From: Cyanidioschyzon merolae
Taxonomy: Eukaryota
Assembly: GCA_000091205.1 (NCBI GenBank)
Contig: AP006495.2
Strand: one strand, 5' to 3'
Length of the DNA stretch: 64,000 nucleotides
Positions 1,265-61,812 of the stretch are shown here, in pieces. A model generated the notes under the pieces. That model searched no databases, had not been told where the DNA came from, and saw only the letters and a list, made by a program, of their open reading frames with translations. The stretch's first letter is position 1. Every line of letters begins with the position of its first letter. A program made the position numbers and the translations under genes.

Positions 1265-1578
1265 AGATGATGACGGAATCTTGTGGTAGACGGTGTAGGT
1301 CTTCGATTCCGAACGACGTTCATTTCGCTTGCGTTCGACGTTTGGTGCCTGTTTGGGCGAACAGGCAGCACCGCACAGCGCTTCTGATGCCTGCAAGCCA
1401 CTTTTCGCCTGGTGTGTGCGCGCTCGCGTGCATGCTCACATGTGCAAAAGCACACGGCCTTGTTCGCAACGCCTACTCAGACACTTGCGTTTCCACGTCA
1501 CTATGGGACGACCCGAAAGCGCTCGCTGGTGTCCCTCGTGGACAGCATAGAGGGCATGTGATGCGATCATTCCGATTT

Positions 1579-1633
1579 CTGCATCTGCTGCTCTTGCTGC
1601 TGCTGCTGCTACTGTTGCTGTTGCTGTTGATGT
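1579..1633. repeat. (CTG)n/(CTGTTG)n microsatellite
   Basis: ctgctgctgctgctactgttgctgttgctgttg run; it produces the poly-Leu ORF 1198-1770, which is probably spurious. Confidence 0.9.
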
Positions 1634-3068: not shown

Positions 3069-3437
3069 TCAGCGGATCATCTCCGAGTGCGGAGGAAGCG
3101 AGCGCTCACACAACTCCGGCGGTGGGGGAACGTTGCGCTGGTACGTGCAGCCGCCTGGTAAATACGGTGCGGTGTAGGGCTCTGGGTGCCTCATCTCTAG
3201 CAAGCGACTGAGACCCCGGTTCAACAGGATCTGGGCCTCGCGAGGACCTGCGTTTTTATTGCGCTGAAACTCGGCTTGGATCTCTCGCGATCGCTCCAGC
3301 CACAAGTCAACGTCCACGAACCAGTCGCGCGCTGTCCGCAAAGCGTGACGATAGAGGCGCGTTACTCGCTGCTGGTGGGTCAGCCCCGGGGCGAACGGAG
3401 CTGCCCGCTGAGCTGGCATCGATACCGCGGCACCCAT
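3069..3437 (-). CDS. NDUFB9: NADH dehydrogenase (complex I) B22 subunit NDUFB9-like, LYR family
   Basis: The peptide LTHQQRVTRLYRHALRTARDW...EFQRNKN...RHPEPYTAPYLPGGCTYQRNVPPP parallels human NDUFB9: [21 protein letters not shown]...HPQPYIFPDSPGGTSYER. It has the LYR motif and the conserved HP-PY-PGG-Y-R block. The C-terminus is shorter than in metazoan proteins. Confidence 0.75.
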   Translation of the reverse strand: MGAAVSMPAQRAAPFAPGLTHQQRVTRLYRHALRTARDWFVDVDLWLERSREIQAEFQRNKNAGPREAQILLNRGLSRLLEMRHPEPYTAPYLPGGCTYQRNVPPPPELCERSLPPHSEMIR

Positions 3438-7744: not shown

Positions 7745-7905
7745 ATTTAACAAAACATTTGCATTGATCAGGGATTCCAGACTGCGTGAATGGATATTGG
7801 CATTCGGCAATGCGTCCGTCTTGATGCACCCTGCCTTCAAGCTCCATAACCCTTCCTTCTTCTCGGATATCGTGGTCGTTACGTATATTCTGTCGTGTGC
7901 TGCGT
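7745..7905 (-). mobile_element. SINE-like short dispersed repeat, copy E (reverse orientation)
   Basis: The reverse complement matches the other copies: cacacgacagaatatacgtaacgaccacgatatccgagaagaagg ... ggttatggagcttgaaggcagggtgcatcaagacgg ... ccaatatccattcacgcagtctggaatccctgatcaatgcaaatgttttgttaaatgaaa. Confidence 0.5.
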
Positions 7906-8487
7906 GACTGCCTTGCTACACCCGCAATAAGAGTTATACCACTGGAGCAGATGCAACGCGGAGACAGAACGTCTGTGCCGTACCACTGAGGCTGTCGGCT
8001 CGAGGCGAGGTTCACTAGTCTCGGAATCGGGCCTCGACATCATTCTGGGGGCCTACAACCCGTACAGACAAGACTACTGCCTGCGGAGGCGCGAAGCGAT
8101 ATCCTACGATACTAGAACGACCAGGTCAACGCTCAGAAGGCGCCTACCTGCTTCGAGTCCCAGAATAAATTGCATTGCGGACAAGCTGCTCAGGTGTCAC
8201 GGCAACAGTAGGCCCGGGGAGAGCTTGAAGTATTAGCCCAGCAGATTCGTAAAGTCCGCGGGACCTGTCGCCTGGAAGGTAAACTTTCGACAATATGGAA
8301 ACCTTTTCCCGCTTTTGACGTTTATCATAGAGGAGGAAAGAAACCATTATCTCGTAGCTACCTAATGGTTCATTTCTCTCTCCCGTGCTAAGCTGCGCGA
8401 TGATCGTGCGCGATACAAGTTGACGAGGCCGCGCTCAACGTCTGCCCAGTGTCGTCGATTGTTGGAAAAAGCGTTCTTTGAACGGGT

Positions 8488-10660: not shown

Positions 10661-12934
10661 ATGCCTTTGCTCAGAGCATGACCCTAGAGTGGAGTGGGAT
10701 ACCAGTAGCAACAGCAGCAACGGCAGCAGCAACTGAAGCAGGTTTTGCGCGGGTCGTGCGCTGGTGAGCGGTTGCCCTTGCGACGACGGAACCTATGATT
10801 GCTGAACAGAGGCCCCTGGTGATACGCACACGCTTTCAACAAGAATAGCTATGCCCAGTGCTTTCCTCTTAAAGAACAGCAAGCAGCTACCGCACCCGCC
10901 GTGTAGTCCCTTAAATGATGAAAACTGTACGACTAGAGGAGCAGAAATTACCGGCTTGCGTGTAGACGAAGGTTCGTCTTGGAACGAATCAGAGCCAAGC
11001 GGCAACACAAACCCATCCACGCGTACACACACATGAACCGCCTGCACGTGTACACGCCTATCCCCAGTCCCGCAGCATCCTATGGGATATGCGCTGTTTT
11101 CATTGTGCACGAGTTGCGTATGACTCATCCGCCACGGCAAGATAAACATGAAGCAGCCATGCAAGTGCTGGTTGCAATCAATCACAAAGCTTCACACTTG
11201 GAAATGTGAATTCTCGAATGCCTGTACCAAACTGCGTTTTTCGTTTTCGTCTGTCTGTCTCGCAGGAGTCCAACAATGCGATACATGCTGCGGAGAGGCG
11301 ACAGGTCGCGAACGTAGTTTGTGCTGCAACCGCTAGCTTGCGTAAATTGCCCTGTCTGTACAAGTCCGTCATGCTATGGTAAGCAGGTGGATGAAGTGAC
11401 CGCTTTTCTCGTCGTGCTTATGCTGGACGTCGTGCTCCCAAAACAGACCCTGTCAAACGCTGGCTACTGGAGTGTGTTGTCACCATTCCATACCACTCGT
11501 TACGTTCGCTAACAAATACTATCAAAGAAGCTGCAGGATGTGAAGGTTCCGCACCGTTGAATCAGAAGGTGATGGAGAGAAGCGATTCGACAAAGAGGAC
11601 TGCAGTGTTCCAGGGGAGACCATCACGCGATCGACAAGACACCATCGATGACGTATAGACATGCGAACGCTTCTCCCAGGAGAGGCAGATGTACGTCTTT
11701 CTTTATGGGAATTCATTTGGGCGAAATCTTACACCTGTATTCTGCGCGCAATTTGAGATGGGGTAACCGCTGTTCGCAGTGTGGAAACGAGCCAGAATGA
11801 AGACAAAATCAGATCTAGCCGCGATGCTACTGTGTGGTCGTCTGCAGATCGCCAAACGGAGAGCGACATCAACCAGCACATCTTTCGTCGAAGCATTGTA
11901 CGGCTTCTGCGTGCCCCAATGCTCTGCCTTGTTCGCAGATAAGGTCGTTTTACATCACTCGACAGCGGCGCGGCAGAGCGCAGCTGAGCTTGGCATCGAG
12001 CTGTGCTGTGCGTTCCGGCTGCTTCTCCTTTGTTCCATCGAGTCGAGGATGTGTTCTCTGTTGTAAACCGCTATTTCAGCACTCACAGATCTATCGACGA
12101 GTCGTTCGCATCCGTGTCATAAATATGGTTCCAGTAGTCGTTCGTTTCTACGTTCACCGGCCCGGAACATCTCCGTTGCGTCTCTGCTCTTGCGCGGGAG
12201 GGAACGGAAGGACCCGCCTCAGCTCCTAGGCATGCTCGCGACGGAGATGCTGACAACGAGGTTCTCACGGAATCGGGTATACACAGACAGAGAAAATGCG
12301 AAATGCAGTGCCCCCGTCGGCCGAGTGCGTCTCCGTCCCCTGGGAAAATGGGTACGGAGTACGGCAACCATTTCCATGCCACCCCGACATGCGATCGAAA
12401 ACCAGAAGAAATCAACTGACGAAGAAGAGTGAAATGCTCGTGGAAATAGGACGCAGAGTGACAGGAACGAAACCGTGACCGACCAGAGAGATCTGTCTGA
12501 AACCGATGTCGAGGCCTCTCAACTGGAACATATCTATGGGGAGAATACCCCAAAATATGTGATGCAGGATGCCATGAGGGATCGTGTAGCATCCTACTCG
12601 AGGAAGGCTGGCGTAGCTTCTCTCGCGTTGACGCACCTCGTCTAGGAATTGTTCGTTCGAGTTCCGGAATCAGGGATACCCACTGTCCGCATCCCTCTGG
12701 AGTGTATCGAGCAAACCTCAGAGCGACCACACAGCTGACGCTGGGATCAGGTGATACGATACCGCTCGCTGGAACGATTCGAAGTTTGCACACGCACGAG
12801 CCCGTGTCGAGTGCACAACGTCCCGAGCCGACGCCCCCAGAGGTATGGCAAAGCCGTTCAGTCACGATGATGCATCCGCTCCAGTAGTTTCGGCACCAAG
12901 TCGGGTGCCCACGACAGGCACTCGTCGCACGAGA

Positions 12935-13090
12935 GAAAATACGAAACGACCATAACATCCGAGAAGAAGTATGGGTAATGGAACTTGGAGGTAGGCGCTT
13001 CATGATGGACGCTTTCTCGAAAGCCATTATCGATCCCGAGTGCTGGGATCCATGGTCAATGGAAACGTTTTGTCATCCGGAAAAAAATTT
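12935..13090 (+). mobile_element. SINE-like short dispersed repeat, copy A
   Basis: gaaacgaccataacatccgagaagaagtatgggtaatggaacttggaggtagg ... catgatgg ... gaaagccattatcgatc ... ctgggatcc ... aaacgttttgtcatccggaaaaaaa. It is collinear with copies at 17455 and 50790 and reverse copies at 34050 and 7745, and has an A-rich 3' end. Confidence 0.6.
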
Positions 13091-15961: not shown

Positions 15962-17454
15962 CGGTCAGCCATGCTGCAATCCGAAGAAGAGTCGTGCCGC
16001 GGTCGCTGTCGTGCGGGCATGCACGCAGCGTGCAGGCAGCATTTGCCTCGCGGGGCGATGACCGCGCATCACGCTGGTACCGCCTCTTCCATTTTCAGTG
16101 CCCGATGCGTACGAGACCGCGATGGCGTATAGGCGCGTCGCAGAGACTGATATTGGTACCGTAAAGTTTACAATACATTGGAGCGAGTTCTCGGGATACG
16201 TTGCTGCAGCGCTTCTTCATATGAGCAGCTCATCACGAGAGAATGGTTGTGCGGGCCCCTAAGAAAACCGGGTCTTCGTCTCCGTCAATGATGCTTGAAC
16301 GCGGATTGCGTCAGGTAGGTCCCTCGTGGTGCCTTATACAACGTATCGATATGGGTTGAACTGAACCGGGTGCCGACATGAATGATCTACGACGGGGCCG
16401 TTCGCACTGCCCACGTTAGGTGCGACCTGCTGAATCATGGGCATGGATTTGTTGGCAGCGGCTGCTCCACGAGATAAGCAGGTGGCACGGGACAGCATAT
16501 TCAGGGCTGGCGCTGCGATGAAAACCGGCACCTGCCATTCCCGCTGGGTGCGACAGAGCGCGCTCCAGAATCCAGCGTTTCCCTCAACGCACGACGCTAC
16601 GCTGAGGCTGCAACGAATGAAATACCAGTACCTAGACTGGTGCGGTCCCCGAAGGACTCGCGCGGCTCGCAGCGCTGTCGCACAGGCATGCACCGACCGT
16701 GCATAGCATGTGGGTGCCCCGCATACGCCCCACGAGGAAGTGCCGGCATTCTAGCAACCGAATGTATGGCTGCATATGAAACACCCGCGTTTCGAGCTCT
16801 GCCGCCATTGCCATGAGGAACGTCCTCAGCGCGTGGACCCCGAAACTCGATTTTATTTGTTCGTGCGAGTGCCACCAGGTGCAAGCGGATGCAACGAGGA
16901 TCTTGCGTATACAGCGCGCCGCGCTTCGGTGCCGCTGCGCCCAATCGCTCCGCGAACGTCACCGCGAGAGCCCATCAACGGCGTATCCGGCCACGCACTC
17001 TGAGTGTAGCACTGGCAACTGATGGTCCGCTAAACGAGCCTCAGCGCTCATTAGTGGCGCACAAACTCACACTCTACCTTCTAGGCGGAAGGTCCAGCGA
17101 ATCGGATGCGCACCCGGGCTCAATGCGCTCTCTGCGCCTACCTTCTGTGGTGGGTGTCGAGCTCAAACCCGCATTGCCAACCGACAACGCATTCCATGCA
17201 TGATCACGAAGGAGAGAGGCGGCTTCCACGATATATCCTAACAACCAAGTTTCTCCAGCGTGTCGTGCAGCGAAGACAAACCTGCATCCGTAGACTGTCT
17301 GAGCACAAACTGACGACGAGACCCGATTCTACGTCGGGTGAAGCACCCCTCGAGCTGACGCCCTCTATGGTATAGAAATGCTGTTCTAGCTCTACGAACT
17401 ATCTGCTCGAGCGGTTCAGGTGCAAAGGCGGATACAGAAAGGCAGGTTCTAGGC

Positions 17455-17645
17455 ACACACGATAGGACGTATGAAACGACCAGAATATCCGAGACGAAGT
17501 ATAGGTAATGTAACATGGAGGTAGGGGGTTGATGGATACCTCACCGCGCACTGAAAAAAACACACACAAAAAAGTAAGAAAAGAAAAATGCGCATAATCG
17601 GAGAACGCTGGCCTAAGTAAACGTTTTGTCCATGAAAAAAACGGC
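17455..17645 (+). mobile_element. SINE-like short dispersed repeat, copy B (with an internal A-rich expansion)
   Basis: cacacgataggacgtatgaaacgaccagaatatccgagacgaagtataggtaatgtaacatggaggtaggg ... gtaaacgttttgtccatgaaaaaaa. Confidence 0.55.
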
Positions 17646-25836: not shown

Positions 25837-28800
25837 ATGCAACGGGGTGAGTATTTCCAAGGTTTGGTGCTGGCAGCGCACACTCGCGGATGTATGCGCG
25901 ATGCTCCGTTTGCCTCGCGAACTAGCTCTTCGAGAAGAAACATTGTGTTTGGCTGCTCATCGCTCATCGCTGCAATACTCGGGTACGGCAGGCATTTCCG
26001 CAGCAAGTGCAAAGCTCTTCATGCCGAAGAGCGTGGATCACTTCTAACCGGGACATCGACTCGCTCTGGGAGAATCTGGGCGAGCATGCAATGCTCGGCC
26101 GTACCACCTCGTTCCGACGCACTGCTCGACAAAACCCAGCGCTTTTTTTTCGCGAGTATCCGCTACGGTGCTTCGATGTACGGGCTGGTGGTACGTGCCC
26201 AGCAATATTGAAAATCGAGCGCCATGATCGTTCAGCAGTGGCCCAGGAGAACTGTTTCAGGTGTATACACGGGGCGCCAGAGCCCTGCTGGATTCCCGAC
26301 ACGTCACGTACCGCTGCCTCGTGCCGAGCTGGGGATTCAATGCCCTCTCGCCTGATCAGTGCTTCTTTCATGCAAGTATTGGGCGTTTCGGTACGATACC
26401 CGTGCGGCGTACTAAACGATGCTTTCGACAGTTCGCTCGTTAGAAAGCCACTGGACGATCCGGAAGTAGCAAATATTTCTGAATGTTGATCGATACTTTC
26501 AACTCTCGGTCCAGAAAGTGCTTCCACGCAATGGTGCTGATGGAGTCACACCGCAGCCAGCACCTCAACCTCCATGGTCTCGCTATCCGGCAATCGATGA
26601 GCGTACCGCACACTCGTTGGAGCATCGGACTCGGTTTCATTCTCTTATTCTGTACCAGTTTCAGCATGCACGCGTGCTCGCGATGCGTTGATATGCTCCT
26701 GAATGCATCGATGCGAATCGTTTACAATCGATTCCTGTACTCGTTGTACGCTCTCGTCGAGCGAGCAGGCGAGAAGCGTTGCGCGCTCCAGTACGTCCAG
26801 CGCCAAAGGCTACTCTAAAGCGAAGCGACTCGCTGGTCATTGCCGTTTCCAACTCATTCAGCAGGCTGCCGAAAATGCGCTTCTTGTCGTCGTACGACCG
26901 AAACCGTTGGCGAACCAGCTGGATCTCATGGCTGTCTGTCAAAAAGATCGTCTGCATGATCCATTTTTACGTTCATGTTCGCTCTGAATGAAGCGTACGA
27001 AACATGCCGTCTGGTCGGTACGGTGTCCGGAGCGTTGGGACAAGCTCTGACGCGGTCATTTGATTTTTCGGGGGAATCCTCCTAGTGCCTATGATGCACG
27101 TGTCTCGATGATGTTGAGCCGTCGAAAAATCTGAGCAGCGCCATCCGCTTTTCTTTCAGGTCTTCGGCTGCGTTCTCTTGATGTGGAGGCACGGCGGCAT
27201 CCATGATGTCCTTGAAAGCGGGATCCGCGCCCATAAAGAACTCTGTCTCTCTCCATCTGCCGTGAACGATTAAAATCAGTCTCGTAGCGCGACTCGGACC
27301 AAGGTTTCAAACAGCGCCTGCGAATGGGTATGTCGTCGATCGGGATCGTCGCTGTAGAATTGAAACCGTGAGCGAGCTCCACCAGTGCCTGTCGTGGAGC
27401 TGTTCGAAGGCGTTGTACGTGCTAGCAGAGCCCAGCCACAGCTCGCTGAGGAAACCGCACAGTACAATATAGTACCGAAACGTCCTGTAATATATTCGTC
27501 CTTGATGTGACAGACGAGGTCCATACCGCATAATACCAATTTCAGTCGCGAGCTGCACTACCGCTCTTGAATGATGGAAAGCGAGGTTGTCTACCAGCAG
27601 GACAGAGGTATTTAAGAGTGAGGAACCGGGAAGCGTGCGTCGAAAAAGAATGGTGTGTTGCACGATCCTATCTTTTCGGCGATTTGTAAGCGACTACAGG
27701 ATTGAATCATCGCTAGGGCTGATCTTTTCGTGATTATTGCTAGTTGCTTTCTGATGAGCGGCGGTTTCCCCATTTTTGAATACTCATATGCAACTGGTCT
27801 ATCCCTTCTCCCGACTGAGGTCTCGTCGAGCGAGACGAACGCTCGCTAACCTTGTCATAAACGTTCGCATTGCAGTACAACATCCATTGCGTGTCGGTCA
27901 ACAAGTGACGATCGTCTACACAAGCGTGCATTTTCGTTTGTCCATCCGTGCCCCTTTATCAACTTTCTTCTCAACGGTATGGAAACGCCCATCCTGTGAC
28001 CTCTTTGTTCGCATTTTTTCCTGAACGTGTGGAGTGGGACGGATCGACGACGAGACAGTCGAGCAGATACACTTTCCCCAGTTCTTTCTTGGATGCACGA
28101 CGTTCAGGATATTGACCACGGAGTGCGTGGCTCATTCACCTCCTGATCGTAAAATGAATGACTTGCACAACTAAGGCCGTTTTCGCGAGCGAGCAGGGAC
28201 AGCGACCGTCTTTCCGCGACCTCTCATCAATCCACCGCATACAATCGTCTTGGAACGGACTCGCGAGAAAACAAACAAACAAACCGAAAACGACGCACTG
28301 GTATATGTATTCGAGCGGTCACGGCTCTGAGTCAAACGGCCAGTTCTGAGCGCTGCCCGCCTGCAATCGCACATCGACGGTGCCGTCTTCGTTTCCAGTG
28401 CCTGGATAAATGCTGAAACATGACGAAAGGTTGCCTCTGTGCGGTTCGAGGTGTGCACCGGTCACTTGGATCGAACGACCAACCGAAGCAGACACTGTTG
28501 AACGCATCACCCCTTCAACGATGATAGATGCCCACTCAAGCTGTCCCGATGATCCGCAAGGTGCCAAACATCGCGATGGCCGACAATTTTCGTAGAATTG
28601 CGTAGTTGTGTGAAAAACTGCGATATGGACGTGGACGCTTGTACACTGCCTTCATTGCAAGTGCGTCTAGCGCTAAAAAACCTCAATACTTCAATTTGAC
28701 AATCGCACCGAACACCGAGAGCATGTGACTCGGCCAACGCATTCGAGGATCAATGGAGATTTGTATCCTTGCTAGCAACAACAGCTGGCACACGTCCCGA

Positions 28801-30120
28801 AATGACACGCTCGTTTTCTTGATTTTTGCGAAAGGAGAACCCATGCGTTGCGAGCAGACACGTTCCCATCGAGTGTTTGGCGATGGAGATCAACGCCTTG
28901 CCAAACAAGCGGTGCCTTGCACGCCAACATATCCACCGCAGTCAGTTTCAGATGGTGTTCGCGGAGTGGCGGACCGCTCTATCCAGTGTGAGTAGCAGTG
29001 GCGGTCCCTCAACACGCGTTTCGAACGAAGTGGTGCAGCACCGTTTTATGCATGTGTTCGTGACAAGGCCAGAGTCGCTCCAGCCGAACGACATGAAACC
29101 AAGACGCAGCGCCACCGGAGAAACATCGAAAAAGCTTATCTAGCTCCACACGCTGCCTAAGGACTTGCCAGTACGTAAGTCAGCGCATTCATGAAGCGTG
29201 GCAAGCGTTCGGTGACGTGAGGCGCTACGAGCACTCGAGAAAGCATACATGCAAGGAGCGTAGTTTCCTGTATGCGGTCTGCTTCTATTCTGGCCAATCG
29301 GTGACTCAGGTTCAGCACAAATACATGGAACACGAAAGCGTCGTGCAGAAGCACTTTAGGGTTCGTGTCTCTCTCTGCAAACCAAAACACACACCATTTC
29401 CTGAGCATATGCCGGTGCAAGCGCGGCTGCGTAGACGCAGCGACGGACAAGCCAACAACAGAGCAGTGTTTTGTTCGCGGGAACGTTTACACTAACCGGG
29501 GAACCTCGGAGTGCCCAGTTAGTAACGGCACTCGGAAAAACGTTCATTGCTCAACGTCCTACCTCCAAGCTCCACTACGCCTGCTTCCCGCTCGGACGTA
29601 CTGGTCACTTGCCACGTTCTATCGTACGTCGAGCCTGCCGTGAGCGCCCGCGATAGCACATGTGCCGCCAGTACGGACGCAGCACGGAGACAGAGCGACT
29701 TTGACGTCTCATGAAGGGTACCGACTCCCGGCGTCGTTCACCCGACACGGTGCCGCCTCTCGTCGTCGATTCGCGCTCGGACAGTCTACGTCCGCAAGCG
29801 TGCCTTTGCGGCACGACGCTTTCGAGAGAGCTGGCTCTTCGGATGAAGACCCTAAGGTCCTCACCCGTCTCCTGCGCAAACCTGTGTGGAAAGCGTTCTC
29901 GGTTGACAGCGCGGGCTTTTGATCCGCAACCATCTGTGTGAAAGTCCCCAAAACACTAGACCCGCGTTCTCATCCAGTTCACGGAGCCTTGCACCTGGAG
30001 TCAACAGCGCAAGGCCTTGCCACCCGACCTGAGCCCTGCACTGGACGCCGCGGAGCGCCGACGCCGTGGCTTGGGCGCGTCCTCCACACTCGGGTTCCAC
30101 TGGGGAGGCCCTCGCTCAAC

Positions 30121-33872: not shown

Positions 33873-34049
33873 GTCACCCCAGCGTACACCTGGATGGAGA
33901 CTGGAACGAGGTCACGCGCACCTGTGCCCCGTCGAGCGCAGCGTCGCAGCAGCATCGGCGCCATTGGCGGCGCTGCTGCGGCGAATGTGTGGTGATTCTG
34001 CGGCAGCGGCGACGGCGACGGCGAATTCTTTGCTAGATTGACAAGGACA

Positions 34050-34185
34050 TTTCCATGGACCTGCGTTCTCCGGCAGTGCGCTTTATATTCGCGCGCAGTG
34101 AAGCATCCGTTGCTCCGCGCCCTACTTCCAAATTCCATTATCCATACTTCTACTCGGATCCAGTGGTCATTGCCTATGTTCTATC
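34050..34185 (-). mobile_element. SINE-like short dispersed repeat, copy D (reverse orientation)
   Basis: The reverse complement ...gaacataggcaatgaccactggatccgagtagaagtatggataatggaatttggaagtagg...ggtccatggaaatgtccttgtcaatc matches copies A and C. Confidence 0.55.
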
Positions 34186-34941
34186 GTGCGCCGCATGCCG
34201 GTTGTTTCGTATCCCCCTGTGGCGCTGGAACAGATGTGTCATAGAGCCGGACCTGCATTGCCATACCACTGAGGGCGTCGGATCATGGCGGGGTGCACTC
34301 GACACGGATTCGGGACTGATCAGCATGCTGGGAACCAGCAAGTTGTGCTAATAGACGAACTGCCTGCGGCAGCGCGAAGCGATCCACTAGGAGTCCATTG
34401 CGACCTGAGAAACGTGCAGACGCTGCCTATCTGCACCTAGTTTCAGAATAATATGCGTGGCGGGCGAGCTGCTCAGGTTTCGCGGCTGCAGCAGCCACTG
34501 CAGAGTCGCACGAAGCGCAAACTCGGCAGACTCGTACAGTTCCAGGGACGTTCCGCCTCGAAGGTGAACTTTCAAAGTTACGGGAACGTTTCCCCCTTTC
34601 CAAGTTCATCGTACAGGGCGGCAAGGAATATATTCATATATTGGCTGGTGAATCGAGAGTCTCTGTGCTTTATTCGAAATAGCGCGCTCGATGCGCGCAC
34701 CTGAGAGATCAGGCAGTCACGAGAATGACGCGAATTTCAATGTTGGAGGGAAACGCGAGCATGACAGTACGTTTTCTTGTTGGTCTACCCTTAATGTTGT
34801 ACGTGCGTTGTATTCGTGGCAAAGTATAATTTTCAGTTTAACTGTGTTTCAGTCCTCAAGCAATTATATTCAACTGATTTTTCGCGATTTATAACAGAAG
34901 CGTTCGAAGTGCGCTCTTTTTCAAAAAGATAAAAACGGAAA

Positions 34942-36800
34942 GTGATGGTAAAGCACGTAGGTGATCCTGGAGGCCCAATGTCGCTGGCTGCCAGAAAAAA
35001 AAACAAAAAATGGAAGAGCAAAGAGGAACAGGAGAAGACGAAGAAGCAAAAGAGGGAGCCCCTACGTCAAAGGCTGCAAGAAAGACGACTGTACGGCGAG
35101 ATGGCGGTGAAATCCTGTCTTCTTAAACATATGAAGGATCCGTACATGGAAAAGCTGCGAGAGGCTATCAGAAACCGTATTGAGTCGCACACCTTGAGTA
35201 TTGTAAAGGCTTCTTCAGGACTAATGCATTTGGCGAAGAAGATATATCATGACGTGACGAACATCAAAACAGTCGAGTTTCCGGAAGAATTTTTCTCAAC
35301 AAAACCTTTTTCGTCACCTGATGCTTGGCACCGGGGAAGCGTCGAGGGCAGATGAGCGAGTGCATGCCCTCCCCGAGAATTACGCCGAGCACTGCCTCAG
35401 CGGTATTCGATACATGGGTGACGCAGATATTTACGAATACGGGGCGATCAAGGACCTCACGAACCTGAAGAACCATCCGACTATGAACCTCGAACGTTTC
35501 ATGATAGGCGCCGTGTTTGCGCTGTACCCGGGCCTCACTCGCCAGGGGATATGGGCTATCATCAATGGCATCACGAACGATTTCCAGTTCATACTGGAGA
35601 TCGAATTCGTCGGCAAGAAGGCACCATGCAGGAGAAAGAATGAAGCCTCTGTCATCCGTGTGGCTGTTCAAGAGCACCGTGCGGTCTTGGGGCTTGTCAA
35701 ATCCTGCAGAAACGATATCAGAGTTGAAAAAAGATGGTATCCCCTCATCCTGCGGTATTTCCTGTTCCTGAAGCGAGAACTCGAACGCAAGGCCGAGATG
35801 GAGCTGATTTGGTGAAAAATGAAGACTCGGAGAGACCGACGGCTGCACTTCTGGATAAGCGCTTCAACGTCGTTCCGATATGCGAGATCGAGTCGCATTT
35901 TGTGACAATCGATTCCAGCGTCCACTAAGGCACCATGAGGGAGCTCAGTCTGGAGTTCGATGTAGGCAGCAAGGAATTTACGGGTGAAAACCGGGAGAAG
36001 TACAGGAAGAATATCTTCGAATTTAAACGTCTCAATACGAGCAAGCAAAAGGTATTCACTGGGATCATCGAAACCGATGGCGTATCCATGTGAGTGTCCA
36101 CTACCGGCGGTTGAATGCGGACCGTCCACTTCCGTCCTCGACATTGCCCGTGACGAAGCATGAAGATGGGAAGGGGGAGGATCCAGCGACACAGAAAGTG
36201 CATGAGAACGACATTGTCGTTGGCGCGGGCCCCGGAAACACGAATATCGTAACCATTGCACTCCCATATGCAGGAAAGATGGTATCGACGGCAGCTTATG
36301 CCAGAACAACATGCATCTTTTAAATTTATCGATAGCAACATATTACCGAGAATCGGGAAGAATGAATGCAAGATTGAATAGTGAAACGTGGAATGCAGGA
36401 GTAAAGGAGCACATGGAGATGCCATCAGGTGCGAATGCCGCACCCGGAATCGTACATATCCCCAAGTACACGTCAGTTGCTGAGACAACGTCCATACAGG
36501 ACGAATCCGTTTCTACCATACAGCATCGAGGGATGTAACATGTATTCCTATGGCTACTGAATGCAAGCGCACGAAAGACATGAGATGGATCCGCTTTTCC
36601 GACGGGTATTGGACCAGTATTGGCAATGTTACACTGCTCACAGGCATGCAATTTGACGCACGCGGATAAGGTGGGTCACTGCGGCTACTGATGACCAGTT
36701 CCGCTCATTGGGCGTACTTCTCATGGCATTGGATCAACGAAGCGGAGCCGATTCCGCTGCCTTGCGAGCGCCATCAGGTCTCAGGCAGGAGAATTTGCCT
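34942..36800 (+). mobile_element. Degenerate TnpB/Fanzor-like element (subfamily 1, copy A): a long ORF broken into at least 5 frames, with a K-rich NLS-like N-terminus
   Basis: Collinear with copy C on the opposite strand (KDPYMEKLREAIRNRI vs KDPFKQKLREATRHL; DLTNLKNHPTMNLERFM vs YLTNLKNHMTMNLERFM). A G-x-G-P-G run [18 protein letters not shown] could be a degenerate RuvC-I. The stretch SETWNAGVKEH...GIVHIPKYTSVAETTS parallels the TnpB W...V.VdPkyTSq block. A degenerate RuvC-III-like WINEAEPI lies at about 36740. Confidence 0.4.
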
Positions 36801-37140
36801 CCTCCATAGACGCTACCACTTTTCACTGAGACCACACGAGAATTATCCCACGGAACAGAGGCATTGTGCAGCAACTTTGCGATTGACATACCAACTTTGA
36901 ACCTCGTTCTTTGCGACACGCCAGCCTGGCTTGGAATTCGCAGGCGTCGGCTCTGGGGAGAAATTCAAAGGCTACTCGCCGCTTTGCCGCACGGCATCAT
37001 CGCTTTCCCGTTTCGTCGTTGTGGCCCGCAAGAAACCTAGCATCGAACTGTAGGGGGCTCTTCGGAAGCAAGGTGTACTATTTCCCACAGCTTGACGTAA
37101 ACGACTGTTCAAGCTGAGCGCTGCGTACGCATTCTCGAAG

Positions 37141-39360
37141 TTGCTACCACACTGCACGATTTTCGTGGAAGCATTCACGCATATGACGCATGTACCAAGC
37201 GAAGACTCCCACAAGATCCAAGTGTCGACAGCGAAATCGCCACCGCCTAATTCGAAGCGAACTATCGCTCACGAGCTGGAGTCGATGGAAACCTCTGCTA
37301 GGCCGAGTCGCTGCCGCGAGACAAACGGCGGGCCCGCAGGCCCCTGCAATCCCTGGACAGGTAAACCGTTTTCGAGCCTCTATTACCAGCTCGAGGAGAA
37401 GCGACGGGCGCTTCCGGTGTTCCAGGAGCGTGAAAGAATCGTCGAAATCGTTAAGCGAAACCGCGTCGTTGTCCTACAGGGAGAGACCGGCTCAGGGAAG
37501 ACAACCCAGGTACCGAGGCTCCTCCTCGAGGCGGGGTTTCAGCGTATTGCTTGTACCCAGCCACGACGCATAGCTGCAGTAAGCGTTGCGACTCGGGTGG
37601 CGCATGAGATGGATGTGCGGCTTGGCGAGCTGGTCGGCTACACCATTCGCTTTGAAGACGTTTCGCATCCGAAACTGACGCGACTCAAGTATGTGACGGA
37701 CGGCATGCTGCTGCGCGAGGCGTTCCAAGATGATAGGCTCTCGCGCTACGACTGTATCATTTTAGACGAGGCCCATGAACGTACACTGAGCACGGATGTG
37801 CTCATGGGTCTTCTCAAGGGTATTCTGAAGCAGCGCCCCGAACTGCATATGGTCGTGATGAGCGCAACCCTGGAACGTGATCATTTTTGCACCTACTTTG
37901 ACCATGCTCCGTTGCTGAATGTAAGCGGTAGAATGCATCCCGTGGATATTCGCTTTGCAGAGCGTCCTGTCTTCGACTATCTGTTCGCAGTGGAGCAGCA
38001 GGTACGCCAAATTCATGAAAACGAACCGGCTGGGGATGTGCTGATCTTCCTCACCGGTGAAGAAGAGATAGAGGATATGTGTAGCCGCCTGCGTCACTAC
38101 TCACGAGCGACGGCGCGAAAACACGGAGCGCCGTTGCAAGTGCTGCCGCTGTATTCGGCGTTGCCCATGTCCGTACAGGAGCGGGTCTTCGAGCCGCCAC
38201 GCCCACCGGAGGCCCGCAAAGTCATCGTCGCAACAAACGTAGCGGAGACCTCGATCACTATCGACGGGATTACCTATGTGATTGATCCAGGCTTTGCCAA
38301 GGTCAAAATTTACAACCCGAGCACTCGCGTGGAATCGCTTTTGGTTTCGCCAATCAGCCAAGACAGTGCAAGACAGAGGGCAGGTCGCGCAGGCCGAACC
38401 CGTCCCGGTATTTGTTATCGTCTGTATACAGAGGAGGCTTTCCGAACAGAGCTGCCGGCGCGCTCACATCCCGAAATCCTTCGTTCCAATCTCTGCAACG
38501 TCGTACTCACTTTGAAGAAACTCGGTATTCATGATCTTATTCACTTTGATTTCATGGACCCGCCGGCGCCAGACACCATGATCCGGGCTTTGGAGATGCT
38601 CTTCTATCTGGGCGCCGTCGACGAAGAAGTCGAACTGACACAACTGGGACGCCAGATGGCAGAATTTCCACTCGATATACAGATCGCTCGAATGCTGCTT
38701 GAGTCGCCACGTCACGGATCGAGTAACGAAGCAATCACACTGGCCGCCATGCTCTCCGTCCCAAACGTTTTCTTGCGTCCACGTCAGCAAGCAGACGAGG
38801 CCGACGCTCGAAAGCAGCGTTTCGTTGTATCCGACAGCGATCACGCCACTTTGGTGCGCGTCTTTGAGGCCTTCATGGACCACGGCTGCGATCGCCAATG
38901 GTGTGCGGAGAACTATTTGAATGATCGAGCGCTCATGCACGCGGTGAACATCCGCCGACAGCTGGAGCTCATGATGCAACGAATGGGTCTACGTATCTGC
39001 TCGCCGGGTAGGCGCGCTCCGGACCGTTGGATACGACTGCGTCGCTGTGTGTTGGAAGGGTTCTTCTCGCAAACTGCATTCTGGATGCGACGACGGGATT
39101 ACTTGACGATTCGGGATGAACAGCTCGTTGGCCTTCATCCCAGCAGCGTCATTCGCCATCGACCTTCGTGGGTAGTATTCCACGAGTTTGTACTTACAAC
39201 CGGGAGCTATATTAGAACAGTGAGCCAGATTGAACCGAAGTGGCTCTTCGAGCTGCCTACAAAATACTACGATCTACTGGAATACAAGGAAGGAGCATCG
39301 CGCAGGGCGCTCGAACTCGCCGCCCGTCTAACAGGACAGCGGCGCTCCGCGGCACCGTGA
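37141..39360 (+). CDS. DEAH-box ATP-dependent RNA helicase, Prp43/DHX15-DHX35 subfamily
   Basis: Motif I GETGSGKTTQ, TQPRRIAA, motif II DEAHERT, SAT, FLTGEEEIE, TNVAETSITIDGITYVIDPGF, QRAGRAGRTRPGICYRLYT; the HA2 and OB-fold C-terminal region is collinear with DHX15. Confidence 0.88.
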   Translation: MLPHCTIFVEAFTHMTHVPSEDSHKIQVSTAKSPPPNSKRTIAHELESMETSARPSRCRETNGGPAGPCNPWTGKPFSSLYYQLEEKRRALPVFQERERIVEIVKRNRVVVLQGETGSGKTTQVPRLLLEAGFQRIACTQPRRIAAVSVATRVAHEMDVRLGELVGYTIRFEDVSHPKLTRLKYVTDGMLLREAFQDDRLSRYDCIILDEAHERTLSTDVLMGLLKGILKQRPELHMVVMSATLERDHFCTYFDHAPLLNVSGRMHPVDIRFAERPVFDYLFAVEQQVRQIHENEPAGDVLIFLTGEEEIEDMCSRLRHYSRATARKHGAPLQVLPLYSALPMSVQERVFEPPRPPEARKVIVATNVAETSITIDGITYVIDPGFAKVKIYNPSTRVESLLVSPISQDSARQRAGRAGRTRPGICYRLYTEEAFRTELPARSHPEILRSNLCNVVLTLKKLGIHDLIHFDFMDPPAPDTMIRALEMLFYLGAVDEEVELTQLGRQMAEFPLDIQIARMLLESPRHGSSNEAITLAAMLSVPNVFLRPRQQADEADARKQRFVVSDSDHATLVRVFEAFMDHGCDRQWCAENYLNDRALMHAVNIRRQLELMMQRMGLRICSPGRRAPDRWIRLRRCVLEGFFSQTAFWMRRRDYLTIRDEQLVGLHPSSVIRHRPSWVVFHEFVLTTGSYIRTVSQIEPKWLFELPTKYYDLLEYKEGASRRALELAARLTGQRRSAAP

Positions 39361-42849: not shown

Positions 42850-43700
42850 TTTGTGGCCATCAGCGAGAGGCCGTTCGATACACATATGATGCTGCTCACA
42901 TCATTTGTATCCAGAGGCTCCCGTCTCGTCCGTTTGCATGCGAAAAGGTTTCGAGCTAGAACTGGAGCCATCGCAGCGACCGTATACTGTGAAGCGTGCG
43001 TCAGTGCGTGGCAAGAAGGGAGCGTAAACGGGTCAGGACCTGTCGACTTGTTCTCTAGTCTGGACATTCCTTCCGGTTCTTGGTTCATCATGGGCAACAT
43101 GGTGTTCCATGAACCCCCAGTCGAATGGAACAGCGTACGATTGCGCATCCAGACAGAACAGAGACCTTGCTGAACAGTTCGCGTACAGAAAATGCCTGCG
43201 ATCGTAGTTTTTACCCAGTTGGGCGCGGAAACGGACGAGCACATCCCTGGGGGGAGCCTCTGCTTCCAGTCAAGAGCAAGTACCAAGGGAAGAAGCCAGC
43301 GTGCATGCGCTACAAGGCAACCCTGGGAGCAGGAGAAAAAGGTTCAATAGACATCTTGAAACACCTGATCACAGTCAAAATGTGAACGCCGCGACAAGCG
43401 TAACGATGTTGTATTCAAAGCAGGTGAGCATGAGAAGCGATTCGTAGATCGCATTCCCCACCTTTGCTCCAAATGCGTCGCTGACACCGGGAAGCCGAGT
43501 CATCGGGACTTGAACGCTGCCATCAACCTCCGTCGACTGCGGAAAACGGTACTCGAGGGAGATGCGTGACCAAAGTCTTTCAATCTGGAGATACGAGAAA
43601 AGAAAAGCAGGCAATCACACGGAAGGCCAGCAAACGCCACCGCTGATAAACCTGGGAGAAGACCAATATACTAGTATCCATGCCCGACATGGAATTCTCT
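42850..43700 (+). mobile_element. TnpB/Fanzor-like RuvC nuclease remnant (subfamily 2, copy B), 3' portion with frameshifts
   Basis: Frame 1, 43369-43569, reads SQSKCERRDKRNDVVFKAGEHEKRFVDRIPHLCSKCVADTGKPSHRDLNAAINLRRLRKTVLEGDA. That is a zinc-finger C-x2-C followed by the RuvC-III motif RDLNAAINL. Upstream frames carry W...F and TEQ-RPC (a degraded yTSQ-C). About 100 bp downstream is homologous to the copy D flank. Confidence 0.55.
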
Positions 43701-47736: not shown

Positions 47737-48410
47737 GAGGCGGCCGCGCAACCTCACGCACCAGGCAACTGTGCTGTGCACCGCCACATGCTCTGGCATG
47801 CTTTTTAATGTGCGTGCTCGTAGATAAAAGGCAACCATGGCAATAGTTAGGAGGAATCATTGAATCGGTCGTTGAACGAGCGATTTTGGTGAAATTTCGG
47901 TTCGTTTCGAGCGAAACTATGATCGATGGCCATCATGTGATCGCAGCAGGCGATCCAGGCGTTCCTTGGAGCACATCGACTGAAGTCGTGCCCGCTCACA
48001 TGCGCCTAGCGATGAAGCATCGAATGACGAAGCTGGACGTACGTGCGTTGAAGAGGCCAGTCTCGGGAACAGCAGACCATGCTCTGGTGACAGCGTCAAA
48101 AGGCACGACGAGATACACCTTGAAAAGGCCGCTTGTGAGCATTCCGTATCCATGCTCTCGCACCAGCGTAAACAATCACTACGAAATGGATGGAGAAACG
48201 CCGTGCTCCGCGCTTGCTTCAGATACTCACCTGAAGAGCGATTGCCCATGCACGAGGTATTCATCGCGTTTGAGTGCATGACCATGATCGGGTGTATGTT
48301 CATACACCGACGTGCAGACGCTTCCCAGTGGTTCTCGAACGGCGACCTACTACTCGTTTCAACTTCTACTTGTGCAGTTCGAGCCTACGAGGTCGGTCCA
48401 CAAAGTTGGT

Positions 48411-50010
48411 TCATGACAGGCTTGGAGGTCTCCTCTGCGGTATCGCACATTTCCTGATATTGACTGCGGCGTTGACGTCCCCGTTCACGAACTCCGTACG
48501 TTTCCTGCCGCTGGATGAACGCGCCAGTGCAAGGAGTTCTCGAACTCGAGCACTCTTTGCCGTTTGATGCGCTTCAGCTCTTCGTACTTTTCTATCCCCT
48601 GAGCGATAGACTGGCCCGTTTCCATCCCGACTTTCTGAAGTGTACATCGCAGCTCATGGTGCACGTATGTCTTTCGGAACGCATCTATGGGGACCGTGTC
48701 AAAACGCTGTGCGCACTGCTCGTGCGCTAGTGTCGACGGAGCCGGTGTGCTCCCTTTCTGAGGCACCCAGCGCCATGCTCCGTATGCTATTAGGAGCATT
48801 TGACTCTTGTCTTCCTTAAAGACGCTCAACTGATTGAAGAAGTTCACGAATGCATGCTTCTTCCTGCAGCACAGCCTCATTCGCTGACGAGCCCGCCGGG
48901 CTTTGTGTACAGTTTCCACAGCTCCTCGAAATGAGCAGCTTGAGTTGCCAGGAACTCTAGAAAGGCTCGAAAGCTCGCGCATCGGCTCGTCACATTGCTG
49001 AACTCCTTCTTATGGACGTCGAGCTCAAGGCTGATCTCCTCTATGTTGCCGTGAACGGCGCTGGAATCGATTGGCTCAAAGTAGGACGTGATGTTGCACA
49101 GCAGCACGACGTTGAAGCGCTTCCCCAGTAGGAAAGCCTTCTGTCTCTCCGAATCTTCATTTTCTTCCGCATCCAGCTGAATCTCCGCCATGCGTTCGAG
49201 TTATCGGTCCGAAAACACGAAATACCGCAAGATGAGGGAATAACATCTTTTTTCATCTCTGATATCTTTTCTGCTGGATTCGCCAGCCCCAAGACCGCAC
49301 GATGCTCTTGAATAGCCGCACGGATGACGGAAGCCTCATTCATGCTCCTGCGTGATGTCTTCTCGTCGACAGATTCGATCTCCTGTTCATGCAGGCGATC
49401 GTTCATGATGCCATTGATAATCGCTTATTTTCCTCTGCGAGAGATGCCTGGGTAGAGCGCAAATATGGAGCGTTTCATGAAACGCTCCAGGTTCATGGTC
49501 ATATGGTTCTTCAGATTCGTGAGGTACTTGATTGCATCGTAAGTGTGCATATCCGAGTCATTCCTGTGTCGAGCACCGTGAAGCGGTATTCGGCGTGATT
49601 TTCCTGTAGGGTATGTACTCGATCGTTTACGCTCGACGTTTGCCCGGTGCCAAGCATCAAGTGCCGGATAATGGCCTTGTTGAAAAATTCTTCCAGAGCC
49701 TCTAATGTTTTGTTGTCCGCTACGTCGTGGCACGTCTCCTTCACCAAATGCATTATTCCTGAAGAAGCGTTACGAACACTGCTGGAGTACGACGCGACAA
49801 GGTGTCTGGTGGCCTCTCGCAACTTTTGCTTGAAGGGATCCTTGATACCGCGTCGAAGAAAAGCTGTCAGTACAATCTCGTCGTACTGTCGTCTTTCTTG
49901 CAGCATTTGACGTCGGGCCTCCGCCCTTTGCTTCTTCGTCTTCTCCTTTTACTCTGAACTCGGCACTGTTTTTCGTTTTTCTCCGGCAACCGGAGATACT
50001 GGTCCTCCAG
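48411..50010 (-). mobile_element. Degenerate TnpB/Fanzor-like element (subfamily 1, copy C), inverted relative to copy A; it retains a clean RuvC-III motif
   Basis: ORF 48411-48647 reads ...GRKRTEFVNGDVNAAVNIRKCAIP (DVNAAVNI). An upstream frame reads ...VPIDAFRKTYVHHELRC (yTSq-C-like). The 5' part is collinear with copy A, including the K-rich N-terminus EKTKKQRAEARRQ. It has multiple frameshifts. Confidence 0.5.
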
Positions 50011-50789
50011 AATCCTCCGCCTCTATACCCATACGTTTATTTTTTATGTTTCAAAAAGAATTCAATTTGAAAGCATCTGCCATGAACCAAGAAACCTCAC
50101 TGGAATACAGTAATGTGAAGGTTGAAACTCAACTGAGGTCAAACACCGTATTTGGCTATGACTGTAACATCGTTACAGCACGTACGTTAGAGCGGCACGC
50201 TAATCATCAGGATCACGTTTCTCTTGAACGGCGAGAGGCGCGTCGTGTCTCCTGCCTTCCTGATCCCGAGATGCGCATATCGACCGCGCTATAGAAAAAG
50301 GAAAGCAACGAACCGCAAACTAGCAATGAGATAGCATTGTTGTCATCGTCTATGGTGCAAATTCAAAGGGAGAAAAGCTTTCCTCATTGCCGAGAGTTTA
50401 CCTTTTAGGTGGAAGGTCCTGCGAGCCAGACGAGTGTGCCCGGTTTGCGCTCCGTGCGACTCTGCAGTGGCGGGTGCTGTGGTGACATCTGAGCGGCTCG
50501 CCCGCAACGCTGTTTATTCTGGGATAAGCGGCTGTTAGGCTGCGTCCGCGGGCGTCACCCTGGCCGTGGTAGACTCTCAGAATATCGCTTCGCGCTGGCG
50601 CAGGCAGTTCGTCTATCAACACAACTTTCTGGTTCCCAGAATGACAATATGTCCCGACCCAGTATCAGGTGTAGCATTCCCGGAGCCGACGTCCTTAGTG
50701 GTGTGGAAAAGCCGTTCATTCTCTATGATGCATCCGCACCAGCGGTACAGGTGCTATGACGGGTGCTCAAATCAGACACTCAGTGCACA

Positions 50790-50950
50790 ATAGAACATAA
50801 GAAACGACCCGCACATCCGAAATGAAGTATGGATAATGGAACCTGATGGTAGGGTGCATCATGATGGCTGCTGCCCAGAAAGCCAATACCCATTTCGCAA
50901 TCTGGGATCGCTGACCAGTGTAAACTTTTTTCATCAAAAATAAAATTCGA
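50790..50950 (+). mobile_element. SINE-like short dispersed repeat, copy C
   Basis: aagaaacgacccgcacatccgaaatgaagtatggataatggaacctgatggtagggtgcatcatgatggctgctgcccagaaagccaatacccatttcgcaatctgggatcgctgaccagtgtaaacttttttcatcaaaaataaaa. Confidence 0.6.
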
Positions 50951-58949: not shown

Positions 58950-59850
58950 ATTCCTTCTCAAGGACAAATCAGCCTTGCTTTGCGGATTTCAATGAAAAAA
59001 TACTCTCCATCAGCATCATAACTCTCAGAGGATAAGCTCATAGAGGAACGCGTTTGATTTATTTGCACGGAAAGGGGTCTTAGAGTCGGACTTGGGCCAT
59101 CGCACCGATCGCTTCCCCCGGTATGTGCGTCGCCGCCTCGCACGCAGGAGACCTATATCAATCGAAACTGCTCGACTTGTTCACCAGTGTGTGTTTTCAG
59201 TCCAGGACTTGCCTCATCATCCACGATATCGCATTCCATAAATCCCCTTGGGAATGGAACAGCGTTCGTCTGTGCATGCAGCAGACATTGGGCTCGTTGA
59301 GGCCATTGCCCAGAAGAAGCCCGTGATCCTGAGTTCCGGTACCGGGCATTGAATCGGAAGATGATCTCGAGGGGTGACATGTGTACCCGCCAACGACAGA
59401 TGCCGAGCGATGATGCGAGCCTTCGCGCGCTACCGTTCAGTCTGCTGAGAATGAGGAAGTGTGATGGATATATGCGAACACCTGACCGCTATCAAGTATC
59501 GCCGCTGTACATGGCGCACCGAGACTGAATACGAAGAAGATAAAGTTGAGAAGCGGTGCATAGATCGCAACCATCGTCTTTACATGAAATGCATCGACAA
59601 CCGTCAAAAGCAGCGACATCGGGACCTAAACGTTGCTATCAACATCCTTCGACTGCTGGCTACGAAGCCCGCGGGAGAGATGAGGCAGGCATATTTGGAG
59701 CCACAGATGAGAGACAGAAAACCCAAGTGACCGGAGGAAGCGCTCGCAAAAGCTGGTGTTGATGATGCCACAAAAAGACCCCAACCTCCTATGCATACCC
59801 AAGAGTCGACTTTGTGGAAACGTTCCACTTTATGGTGAAATCGGTGTATG
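58950..59850 (+). mobile_element. TnpB/Fanzor-like RuvC nuclease remnant (subfamily 2, copy D), 3' portion with a frameshift
   Basis: ORF 59461-59730 reads ...KRCIDRNHRLYMKCIDNRQKQRHRDLNVAINILRLL (zinc-finger remnant plus RuvC-III RDLNVAINI). The upstream ORF 59123-59326 FHKSPWEWNSVRLCMQ is homologous to copy B FHEPPVEWNSVRLRIQ at both DNA and protein level. The downstream flank is homologous to copy B. Confidence 0.55.
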
Positions 59851-61812
59851 CATGCGCGGATTCTGTTCTCGGTGCCATGTTGTTTTATTCTTTTCTGCTT
59901 TGTCGTACTGCTCAGGGCACAGACTCGAGACGCAGTTCATTGGACACGGAGCCGGGACTTGTATTTATTCTTAGAGTCGTCAAGCTGCGCAAACAAGCCC
60001 ACTGCCGGCGACGGCGCGAAGCAATGTGCCACGAGACCACCACGACCAGCAAGACACCTAGACGCAGATGAATCGCTCCCAGGCCTCGGGTAAACTGCGT
60101 ACCGGTAGAGCTGCTCAAGTCGCGCCTCTGCTGAGGTGCGCGGAGCTCTCGCCCGACGGACTCATCCGGCGTCGGTGATCTCACGCTTTGGAGGTAATCT
60201 TTCGAATATACCGAAACCTTTTCCTACTTTCAACGCTATCCATAGAATGGGAAACAACTTTTATCGAGTTGCCAGATAGAAATACATTTTCGATTCGACT
60301 CTTCTGTATGATGCTGGCGAGGGATGGGATCGACATCTCAGGGCGCTGCGCGTGCGCGATCTCTGCAGGTCTACATTCTCTACTGTCAAGACATGTTCAT
60401 GCGTATCCATCTAGCAGATGAATATATCGTTTCTCAAGTTGGAATCTTTTGATGGTGTCGCGTATCGACGGAGTGCCGTTGAACGCATTTGAACGTGGCG
60501 AGTGCCTTGTGCATGTGCCTTGATTCGCGCTCGCATATGAGGGAGGCGTACAAGCCGCATTTACAGACCCACCGCCCGGGGTGCTGCTGGGCACTGTGGG
60601 AGTCAGAGCGCAGCTGAGAAACCTTCGCGTCCGAAAGCGTTCATGGCATGTACCTAGGCATATGCAGTGCACCGACGCGTGTCGCTTTGGCACAGAGCAT
60701 CCCTGCGTTGACATATGTATCGTCGAGATGAGGTTTCGGAGCTGCAATCTGCTCAATCTCCTGCTCTACCTGAGCATAAAAACGCTAATCCCGACGAAAG
60801 AACGCCAAGAAGACTTGCGTGTTCCGTTGTTCTTTCCAGAGAGGCGGGCAGGTGTGTCGCGCTGTACGGCTGCACTCGCTCACAGCGTACCCAATAGATA
60901 ACAAGTACCGATAACCTGCTGGACACGTTTGTTCAAACCTGACGGTCTCTTGCGCCGACGATATCTGAGCTGCGATGCCATGGACGCGGATTCAGCAGTG
61001 TCGCACTGAAAATTCTTGACCATAGTCGGTTGCTGTCGAGGCCTCGGTGTCGCTCACCGTCAGAGAGGCGACACTGCAAAAACGCCACGGGAGACGGCGC
61101 AGGCGTTGTGCCAGAGCTGCAGAAAGCGCCTGGGTCGATGGCTTGCCATGTCGTCGCAAAGTCGGTATGGCGCTAGGCACGCACAGCATAGGAATCGCTC
61201 ATGTCTAGTTCAGAACAATGCGCGGGATTCGCCTCCAAGCATGGCTCGTCATTGTTCCCGTGTCTGCTCAGGCCCGCGATATCCCGCTCAAGCTGGGTGG
61301 ATTCTGCGACGCAACCCGAGAATTCATCAGGATGATTGCTCCAATGCTATGGATCGTCAGACGACCCAGCGTGCGCCCTTGGTAGCGAACCGATACGCTG
61401 GGGTTGGCGGTCCTCGAGGACAGGGCAGCTGCTCATTACCGTCGAGTTTATCACTGCACCGAACGGGAATCGACCAGGGCGTAGTGTATTCCCCGAGAAG
61501 AGCAGCGCTTGCCTACCTGTTTAAGCGAGTTTGTGAATGTATCTGTCTAGCTGTCTGCCTGTTATTGTCGCCCCGCTGTAGCAAGTACATACTGGTCACT
61601 AATCCGTCTGCTAGGATGGGACACATCGCTGGTGATAGTCAGGGAGCAGGCATACCTAGTTCAGCTTGCATGGCCTGATCACTGTGACATTCACACAGCG
61701 CATTCCGGGTTCGTGCACTATGTCTGGACTGGCATCAGCATCGCTGTGAAATGCAGCGGACAGAAGCGGTACCGCAGAACGCTAAGCATCGTCATTTCTT
61801 TAAAATCATTTC

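Follow-up and report, generated by a model that had tools for sequence, protein, structure and literature searches.

A probable truncated and decayed copy of the Fanzor1 family CMe-1A upstream of a DEAH helicase gene in Cyanidioschyzon merolae

A stretch of DNA at 34.1-36.4 kb of the window analyzed here (64,000 nucleotides of nuclear DNA from chromosome 13 of Cyanidioschyzon merolae 10D, a thermo-acidophilic red alga) is, judged by its sequence, the relic of one of the ~150 old copies of the transposon family CMe-1A. This relic, here referred to as copy A, is almost certainly a 3'-truncated, frameshifted, and non-functional Fanzor1 element that drifts neutrally in the intergenic DNA upstream of a DEAH helicase gene. 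The finding is real but ordinary, as it concerns a published transposon family and an already-known kind of element. Fanzor1 and Fanzor2 were defined by Bao & Jurka 2013 (PMC3627910, Mobile DNA 4:12), who listed one Fanzor1 family for C. merolae, namely, CMe-1A, with ~150 copies per genome that are each ~80% identical to a 3169-bp consensus. The family has no TIRs, its TSDs were left undetermined, and it contains a single intronless ORF encoding a 734-aa Fanzor1 protein (PMC3627910). According to the same authors, some CMe-1A copies still encode intact protein, and the first 635 bp of CMe-1A are also present in TE-N2_CMe, a short repeat of ~70 copies (PMC3627910). The consensus DNA and protein used here were taken from the supplements of that paper.

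In a blastn alignment, bases 84-2386 of the CMe-1A consensus correspond to window positions 34121-36417 on the plus strand, with 81.3% identity over 2321 columns, i.e., the level published for typical copies (~80%). Per block of 100 columns, identity is 70-93% up to the 3' breakpoint and 78-89% just before the drop. The start of copy A lies at ~34100 (BLAST from 34121, visual alignment back to ~34103), and consensus bases 1 to ~70-80 are poorly aligned. The 5' non-coding part (34100-34944, plus strand; consensus ~70-905, delimited by blastn and visual alignment), of which the ~635 first consensus bases are the portion in common with TE-N2_CMe, is followed by the remnant of the Fanzor1 ORF (34945-36417, plus strand), which corresponds to aa 1-494 of 734 in the codon-level alignment and tblastn and has HMM matches at 35032-36430. 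Copy A is like CMe-1A in its organism, in the order of a ~900-nt 5' non-coding region followed by an intronless ORF, in its N-terminus, and in its RuvC-I box; it differs in that it is frameshifted and lacks consensus 2387-3169, and it is not a complete unit of ~3.2 kb with both ends. An earlier note on this DNA, made from the letters alone, had placed the element at 34942-36800, whereas it begins ~850 bp earlier and stops ~380 bp sooner (~34100-36417).

The plus strand at 34942-36430 can be read as a single protein only with several frame changes. When the CMe-1 protein was compared with the window by tblastn, it matched in five collinear pieces in frames 1, 2, 1, 3, and 2 (34945-36418, E 2e-140). 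These pieces bear out the description of one protein running across at least five frames, but not its length of ~1.8 kb, as the coding relic measures ~1.47 kb. The K-rich N-terminus described in the earlier note is present as a K/R-rich, NLS-like stretch, ARKKNKKWKSKEEQEKTKKQKREP (34990-35061, plus strand, read from the ORF translation), which is homologous to consensus aa 15-38, where its counterpart is AAGKKRKTVPSPEEQEKTKKQKRE; N-terminal NLSs are typical of Fanzors (PMC10530073). The RuvC-I box (15 aa; 36216-36260, plus strand, placed by motif position) reads VVGADPGNTNIITIA in the consensus, with GADPG at aa 429-433. Copy A has GAGPG at this place, and the replacement of Asp431 by Gly (codon GGC, 36228-36230) had been recognized correctly.

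Assignment to Fanzor1 is based on homologues as well as on the published consensus. A search with a composite translated from copy A and copy C, the latter being a second copy in the window, retrieved 34 proteins with a best E of 1e-203, all from metagenome or assembly collections (33 with JGI as source), and most of these carry the Pfam domain PF26935 (DUF8286). The intact homologues show IVGADPGNTNII, VDEFRTSYTHHELGC, and VNRDFNAAINIRKC, i.e., the D / E / D arrangement known from TnpB-like RuvC nucleases; they read GADPG and keep all three residues, unlike copy A. A family profile (alignment A1) was built from 17 homologues. In an hmmsearch of the PDB, this profile matched SpuFz1 of Spizellomyces punctatus (8GKH, E 1.8e-4), and the alignment covers the TDG, RuvC-I DPG, DE[FY]-x-TS, and RD motifs, in which SpuFz1 and the C. 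merolae family are alike. When A1 was compared by hhalign with an independent Fanzor1 profile (green-algal VCa-1, CRe-1, CRe-4, and CVu-1), the match reached 99.2% with E 7e-20 over 356 columns.

The predicted active-site residues of the consensus are Asp431 (GADPG), Glu603 (VDEFRTS, aa 601-607), and Asp672 (NRDFNAAINI). Where the canonical RuvC-II residue would stand, the consensus has a Gly (VVAYGAG, aa 568-572), and a Glu follows ~35 residues downstream, which fits the rearranged catalytic site of Fanzors described by Jiang et al. 2023. The C. merolae family is thus like other Fanzors in the Gly at canonical RuvC-II (AYGAG), the Glu further downstream, and the basic, NLS-like N-terminus. 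It differs from SpuFz1 by low sequence similarity, and a clear C4 zinc finger is missing from its TS-RD interval; in the consensus this interval, TSYTHHELGC...EKC, holds only two Cys and two His, so that even the intact family is without a clear C4 zinc finger. Bacterial TnpB has the ancestral RuvC nuclease architecture (D...E...D) and is encoded inside a mobile element (Bao & Jurka 2013, PMC3627910). The C. merolae family shares the RuvC D...E...D architecture and the location in a mobile element with the TnpB proteins of IS200/IS605 and IS607, but it is eukaryotic and nuclear, has a long N-terminal extension and a relocated glutamate, and comes without a TnpA partner and without an OrfB_IS605 or OrfB_Zn_ribbon match.

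The earlier note had proposed a profile search of the frameshift-corrected translation. Scanned against a Pfam-A release that is older than PF26935, such composites gave nothing relevant, OrfB_IS605 and OrfB_Zn_ribbon included, and the same held for the single ORF fragments and for the intact homologues. That silence, together with the fact that two of the four motifs named in the earlier note are indeed chance, would be expected if the Fanzor-like motifs had arisen by chance or belonged to a different transposase family. This explanation is given no credence at all, given the E of 2e-140 against the published Fanzor1 consensus, the hhalign E of 7e-20 against independent Fanzor1 proteins, the match of the profile to SpuFz1 in the PDB, and the presence in the homologues of PF26935, which the Pfam copy scanned predates. 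With 81% identity to CMe-1A and these profile matches, the description of the locus as a decaying Fanzor1-type gene holds. An AlphaFold2 model of P0001, the best homologue (17-sequence alignment), had a mean pLDDT of 45.6 and a pTM of 0.36 and was of too low quality to confirm the RuvC fold; fold-level support for Fanzor1 comes from the sequence profiles and the published classification.

To count the damage, copy A was aligned codon by codon with the consensus CDS (906-3110). Nine indels are present, none of which is a multiple of three (near 35294, 35310, 35588, 35593, 35694, 35730, 35808, 36092, and 36261). In addition, the CAC codon of consensus aa 331 has become TAA by substitution (35926-35928), which gives the only such stop. 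Substitutions are nearly evenly spread, at 14.5, 11.8, and 18.0% for the three codon positions, and non-synonymous codon changes number 130 versus 48 synonymous ones. The slight excess at third positions (18% vs 12-14.5%) may reflect coding-constrained divergence of the source subfamily before copy A died, so that not all of the differences seen in copy A need be post-insertion decay.

At the 3' side, identity in the alignment to the consensus falls from ~80% to 42-53%, i.e., random level, past ~36417-36450; the breakpoint is uncertain by ~30 bp, as weak similarity may reach ~36450. Global alignment, local DNA and protein alignment with shuffle controls, and a six-frame HMM scan of 36418-37140 all failed to recover the missing C-terminal third. 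In local DNA alignment of 36418-37140 to consensus 2387-3169, the score was matched by 13 of 200 shuffles, and a positive control upstream of the breakpoint scored 800 versus 25 for the tail. Protein scores of the same segment in three frames were matched by 65, 30, and 160 of 200 shuffles, and the family HMM had no match in six frames between 36431 and 37140; in the six-frame scan of the whole window, its last match to copy A ends at 36430, at profile position 461 of 659. On the grounds of random identity, failed shuffle tests, and no HMM match, 36418-36800 is non-homologous intergenic DNA outside the element, upstream of the DEAH helicase gene. Copy A is without consensus 2387-3169 (~780 bp) and without aa 495-734 (240 aa), so that Glu603, the TS/Cys region, the RuvC-III RD motif with Asp672, and the 3' non-coding end are gone, and it differs from Fanzor1 in having none of the C-terminal catalytic elements. 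The relocated catalytic Glu block D-E-[FY]-x-[TS]-[TS] (consensus aa 601-607), which both the consensus and P0001 possess, is absent in copy A, with no HMM or BLAST signal after 36430. Also absent in copy A is the RuvC-III motif R-D-x-N-A-A, which is found in the consensus and, as DVNAAVNI, in copy C.

Two features that had been interpreted as mutated catalytic motifs lie in this flanking DNA. One is a supposed zinc-finger block with lost cysteines, IVHIPKYTSVAETTS (36449-36493), which is past the homology breakpoint, scores at shuffle level, and has 1 of 15 residues in common with the true VDEFRTSYTHHELGC; the W ascribed to it belongs to the genuine ETWNAG (36383-36400). The other, WINEAEPI (36730-36753), had been taken for a mutated RuvC-III motif, but is 300 bp outside the element and scores no better than shuffles, and HWINEAEPI and RDFNAAINI are alike at three of nine aligned residues. 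Since both lie beyond the breakpoint and score no better than shuffled sequence, they are chance resemblances, not mutated catalytic positions. Here, the sequence-only reading over-extended a real homology into unrelated DNA.

By analogy with SpuFz1 and other work on the family, an intact Fanzor1 would enter the nucleus via its basic N-terminus, bind a guide RNA that is transcribed from the 3' end of the element encoding it, and cut matching DNA with its RuvC site, which in the CMe-1 consensus would consist of Asp431, the relocated Glu603, and Asp672. Guide RNAs of Fanzor and TnpB are normally encoded in the 3' non-coding end. Copy A is incapable of these functions, because it has lost the last ~780 bp (with Glu603, Asp672, and the presumed guide-RNA region) and carries D431G, nine indels, and a stop.

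Four metagenome contigs from sister strains (L003-L006) are collinear with the window from 30.6 to 50.9 kb at 99.1% identity, and copies A and C are both present in them. Between the window and L005, the ORF remnant of copy A differs at 26 of 1473 sites (1.77%) and contains two strain-specific 1-bp indels (35312 and 36021), both inside the "coding" part. The corresponding values are 37 of 7858 sites (0.47%; Fisher p 1e-6 vs copy A) for six flanking coding regions and 58 of 6366 sites (0.91%; p 0.007 vs copy A) for non-repeat intergenic DNA. Strain divergence of copy A is ~4x that of the pooled CDS and represents the highest class in the region, and the tail at 36418-37140 is also ~1.8% divergent between strains. 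A segment just upstream of copy A, 33873-34034, differs from the sister strains by 3.7%, the region maximum, although the numbers are small (6 of 162 sites).

Nine long ORFs of the window were looked up as exact sequences in a 15-billion-sequence collection, and eight were found, seven of which are identical to annotated 10D proteins (CMM036C, CMM039C, CMM049C, CMM051C, CMM056C, CMM057C, and one conserved hypothetical protein). None of the ORFs of copies A and C is a called protein in this collection. Three accessions lie between BAM80934 and BAM80938, and exactly three large ORFs lie between those genes, from which it would follow that no protein gene is annotated at ~33.9-37.1 kb. No sign of constraint is seen on any frame of copy A, and the near-even substitutions over codon positions, the ~4x CDS divergence, the strain-specific indels, and the lack of a called gene point to neutral decay, not domestication.

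The earlier note had kept open a domesticated or inactivated-nuclease derivative, i.e., a catalytically dead Fanzor kept by the host as an N-terminal REC/WED-like fragment or as a nuclease-dead RNA-guided DNA binder. The replacement of the catalytic Asp by Gly and the retention of the relic at the same locus in sister strains would suit such a protein, but retention among strains that are 99% identical is uninformative on selection. The nine frameshifting indels and the stop (the longest sense ORF has 164 aa), the missing C-terminal 240 aa, the even substitutions over codon positions, the region's highest strain divergence with its strain-specific 1-bp indels, and the absence of a called gene on copy A make domestication extremely improbable. 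Co-option of the dead gene as non-coding DNA, e.g., as promoter or enhancer of the DEAH helicase or as a template for small or antisense RNA, is very improbable as well. The relic lies ~0.7 kb upstream of the helicase ORF (37141-39360, plus strand) and on the same strand, and long open stretches are present on its antisense strand, both of which would be in keeping with such a use; however, a conservation signal is lacking, as the relic and the tail at 36418-37140 (~1.8%) are above other intergenic DNA, and Rfam and tRNA scans of the 64-kb window found nothing. ORFs longer than 150 aa do occur on both strands, as previously noted (164 aa on the plus strand; 194, 214, and 187 aa on the minus strand). 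The three antisense ORFs were considered as real genes and rejected, because comparable open stretches of 116-197 aa are found in the antisense of the CMe-1A consensus and none of the ORFs is a called protein; they are a compositional by-product of the purine-rich sense strand.

The region at 34.1-36.4 kb, which has no called gene, and the similar debris in the rest of the window are best masked as repeats (CMe-1A/Fanzor1) rather than taken for candidate genes. Beyond annotation, the relic is of little importance.

Long open copies of the family occur elsewhere. P0001 has a 752-codon open frame in which D, E, and D are intact, and is 71% identical to the consensus, with gaps that stem mostly from the tandem repetition of a ~25-aa unit immediately ahead of RuvC-I. 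This unit of ~75-78 bp (KHEE-K-EADPATQEVQDND-VV-DA), upstream of the RuvC-I Asp, is present as several tandem repeats in P0001 (aa ~380-480; L001:7221-7376) and has undergone expansion in P0012 and P0002 too, whereas the consensus and copy A have only one such unit. P0001 was considered as a pristine intact copy, which was rejected because its canonical ATG region is altered or lost, and it is only referred to as a long open copy. The genes flanking P0001 (L001:6001-8259) cluster at >=90% identity with BAM82337 and BAM82338, two proteins that are neighbors in C. merolae, and P0012 is flanked by relatives of BAM82147 and BAM82148. In 10D, the accessions within each pair are consecutive, with no protein annotated between BAM82337 and BAM82338 nor between BAM82147 and BAM82148. 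These flanking-gene matches imply that P0001 and P0012 are copies in C. merolae-type genomes, at loci that are unannotated in 10D, and the reference annotation appears to omit the whole Fanzor1 family. Long open Fanzor1 frames were seen at L001:6001-8259 and L002:6001-7677. The long open copies agree with what was stated in 2013, namely, that coding capacity persists in some copies. As a family from a thermo-acidophilic eukaryote with no obvious C4 zinc finger and with long open natural copies, the C. merolae Fanzor1 could merit biochemistry, an appeal that is a property of the family and not of the dead copy A.

The window is strewn with further remnants of the family. Copy C (48306-50935, minus strand) was delimited by blastn, tblastn, codon-level analysis, and ORF translations, and consists of consensus 2-1950 directly joined to 2394-3092. 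Its internal deletion of 443 bp takes out the RuvC-I box; further damage comprises four frameshifting indels, one in-frame deletion of 3 bp, and six stops, and the alternative Glu has been substituted (IDAFRKT). Copy C keeps the RuvC-III motif DVNAAVNI, which the earlier note had reported for it, at 48459-48482 (minus strand). Copy C is inverted with respect to copy A and 75% identical to it over 34867-35963, and the two have in common a frameshifting 10-bp deletion at consensus 1689 (35730 in copy A, 49250 in copy C), which suggests that they belong to one subfamily or arose from an element that was itself defective. Copy B (26449-27252, minus strand; tblastn E 1e-16, HMM positions 385-638, translations) is a highly diverged Fanzor remnant spanning RuvC-I to RuvC-III, about 28-33% identical to CMe-1 and P0001 and with several stops, and either it predates copies A and C by far or it stems from a second Fanzor1 lineage outside the 2013 list, which has one family for this species.

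The truncation of copy A (~36417; consensus ~2386-2420) and the distal end of the deletion in copy C (~48999; consensus ~2390-2394) lie within ~10-30 bp of each other, a closeness that could be coincidence or a recurrent breakpoint. The joint proposal that consensus ~2386-2394 is a recurrent, CMe-1A-specific breakpoint (e.g., a recombination or self-cleavage hotspot located shortly past the RuvC-I region) and, separately, that copy B represents an older second Fanzor1 lineage is regarded as unlikely.

Weak matches to the family HMM were also observed at 12445-12642 (plus strand, E 1.6e-6), 43378-43539 (plus strand, E 0.033), and 59482-59697 (plus strand, E 0.004), and cover N- or C-terminal portions of the Fanzor profile. 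A 314-aa ORF at 12083-13027 (minus strand), which is a called protein nowhere, overlaps the match at 12445-12642 as well as a TE-N2-like fragment and is probably spurious. Lastly, five solo fragments, at 7750-8370 (plus), 12802-13077 (minus), 17075-17525 (minus), 29482-29750 (plus), and 59897-60279 (plus), resemble the CMe-1A consensus in its 5' ~620 bp only, with 69-84% identity in their main pieces, and are probably copies of TE-N2_CMe.
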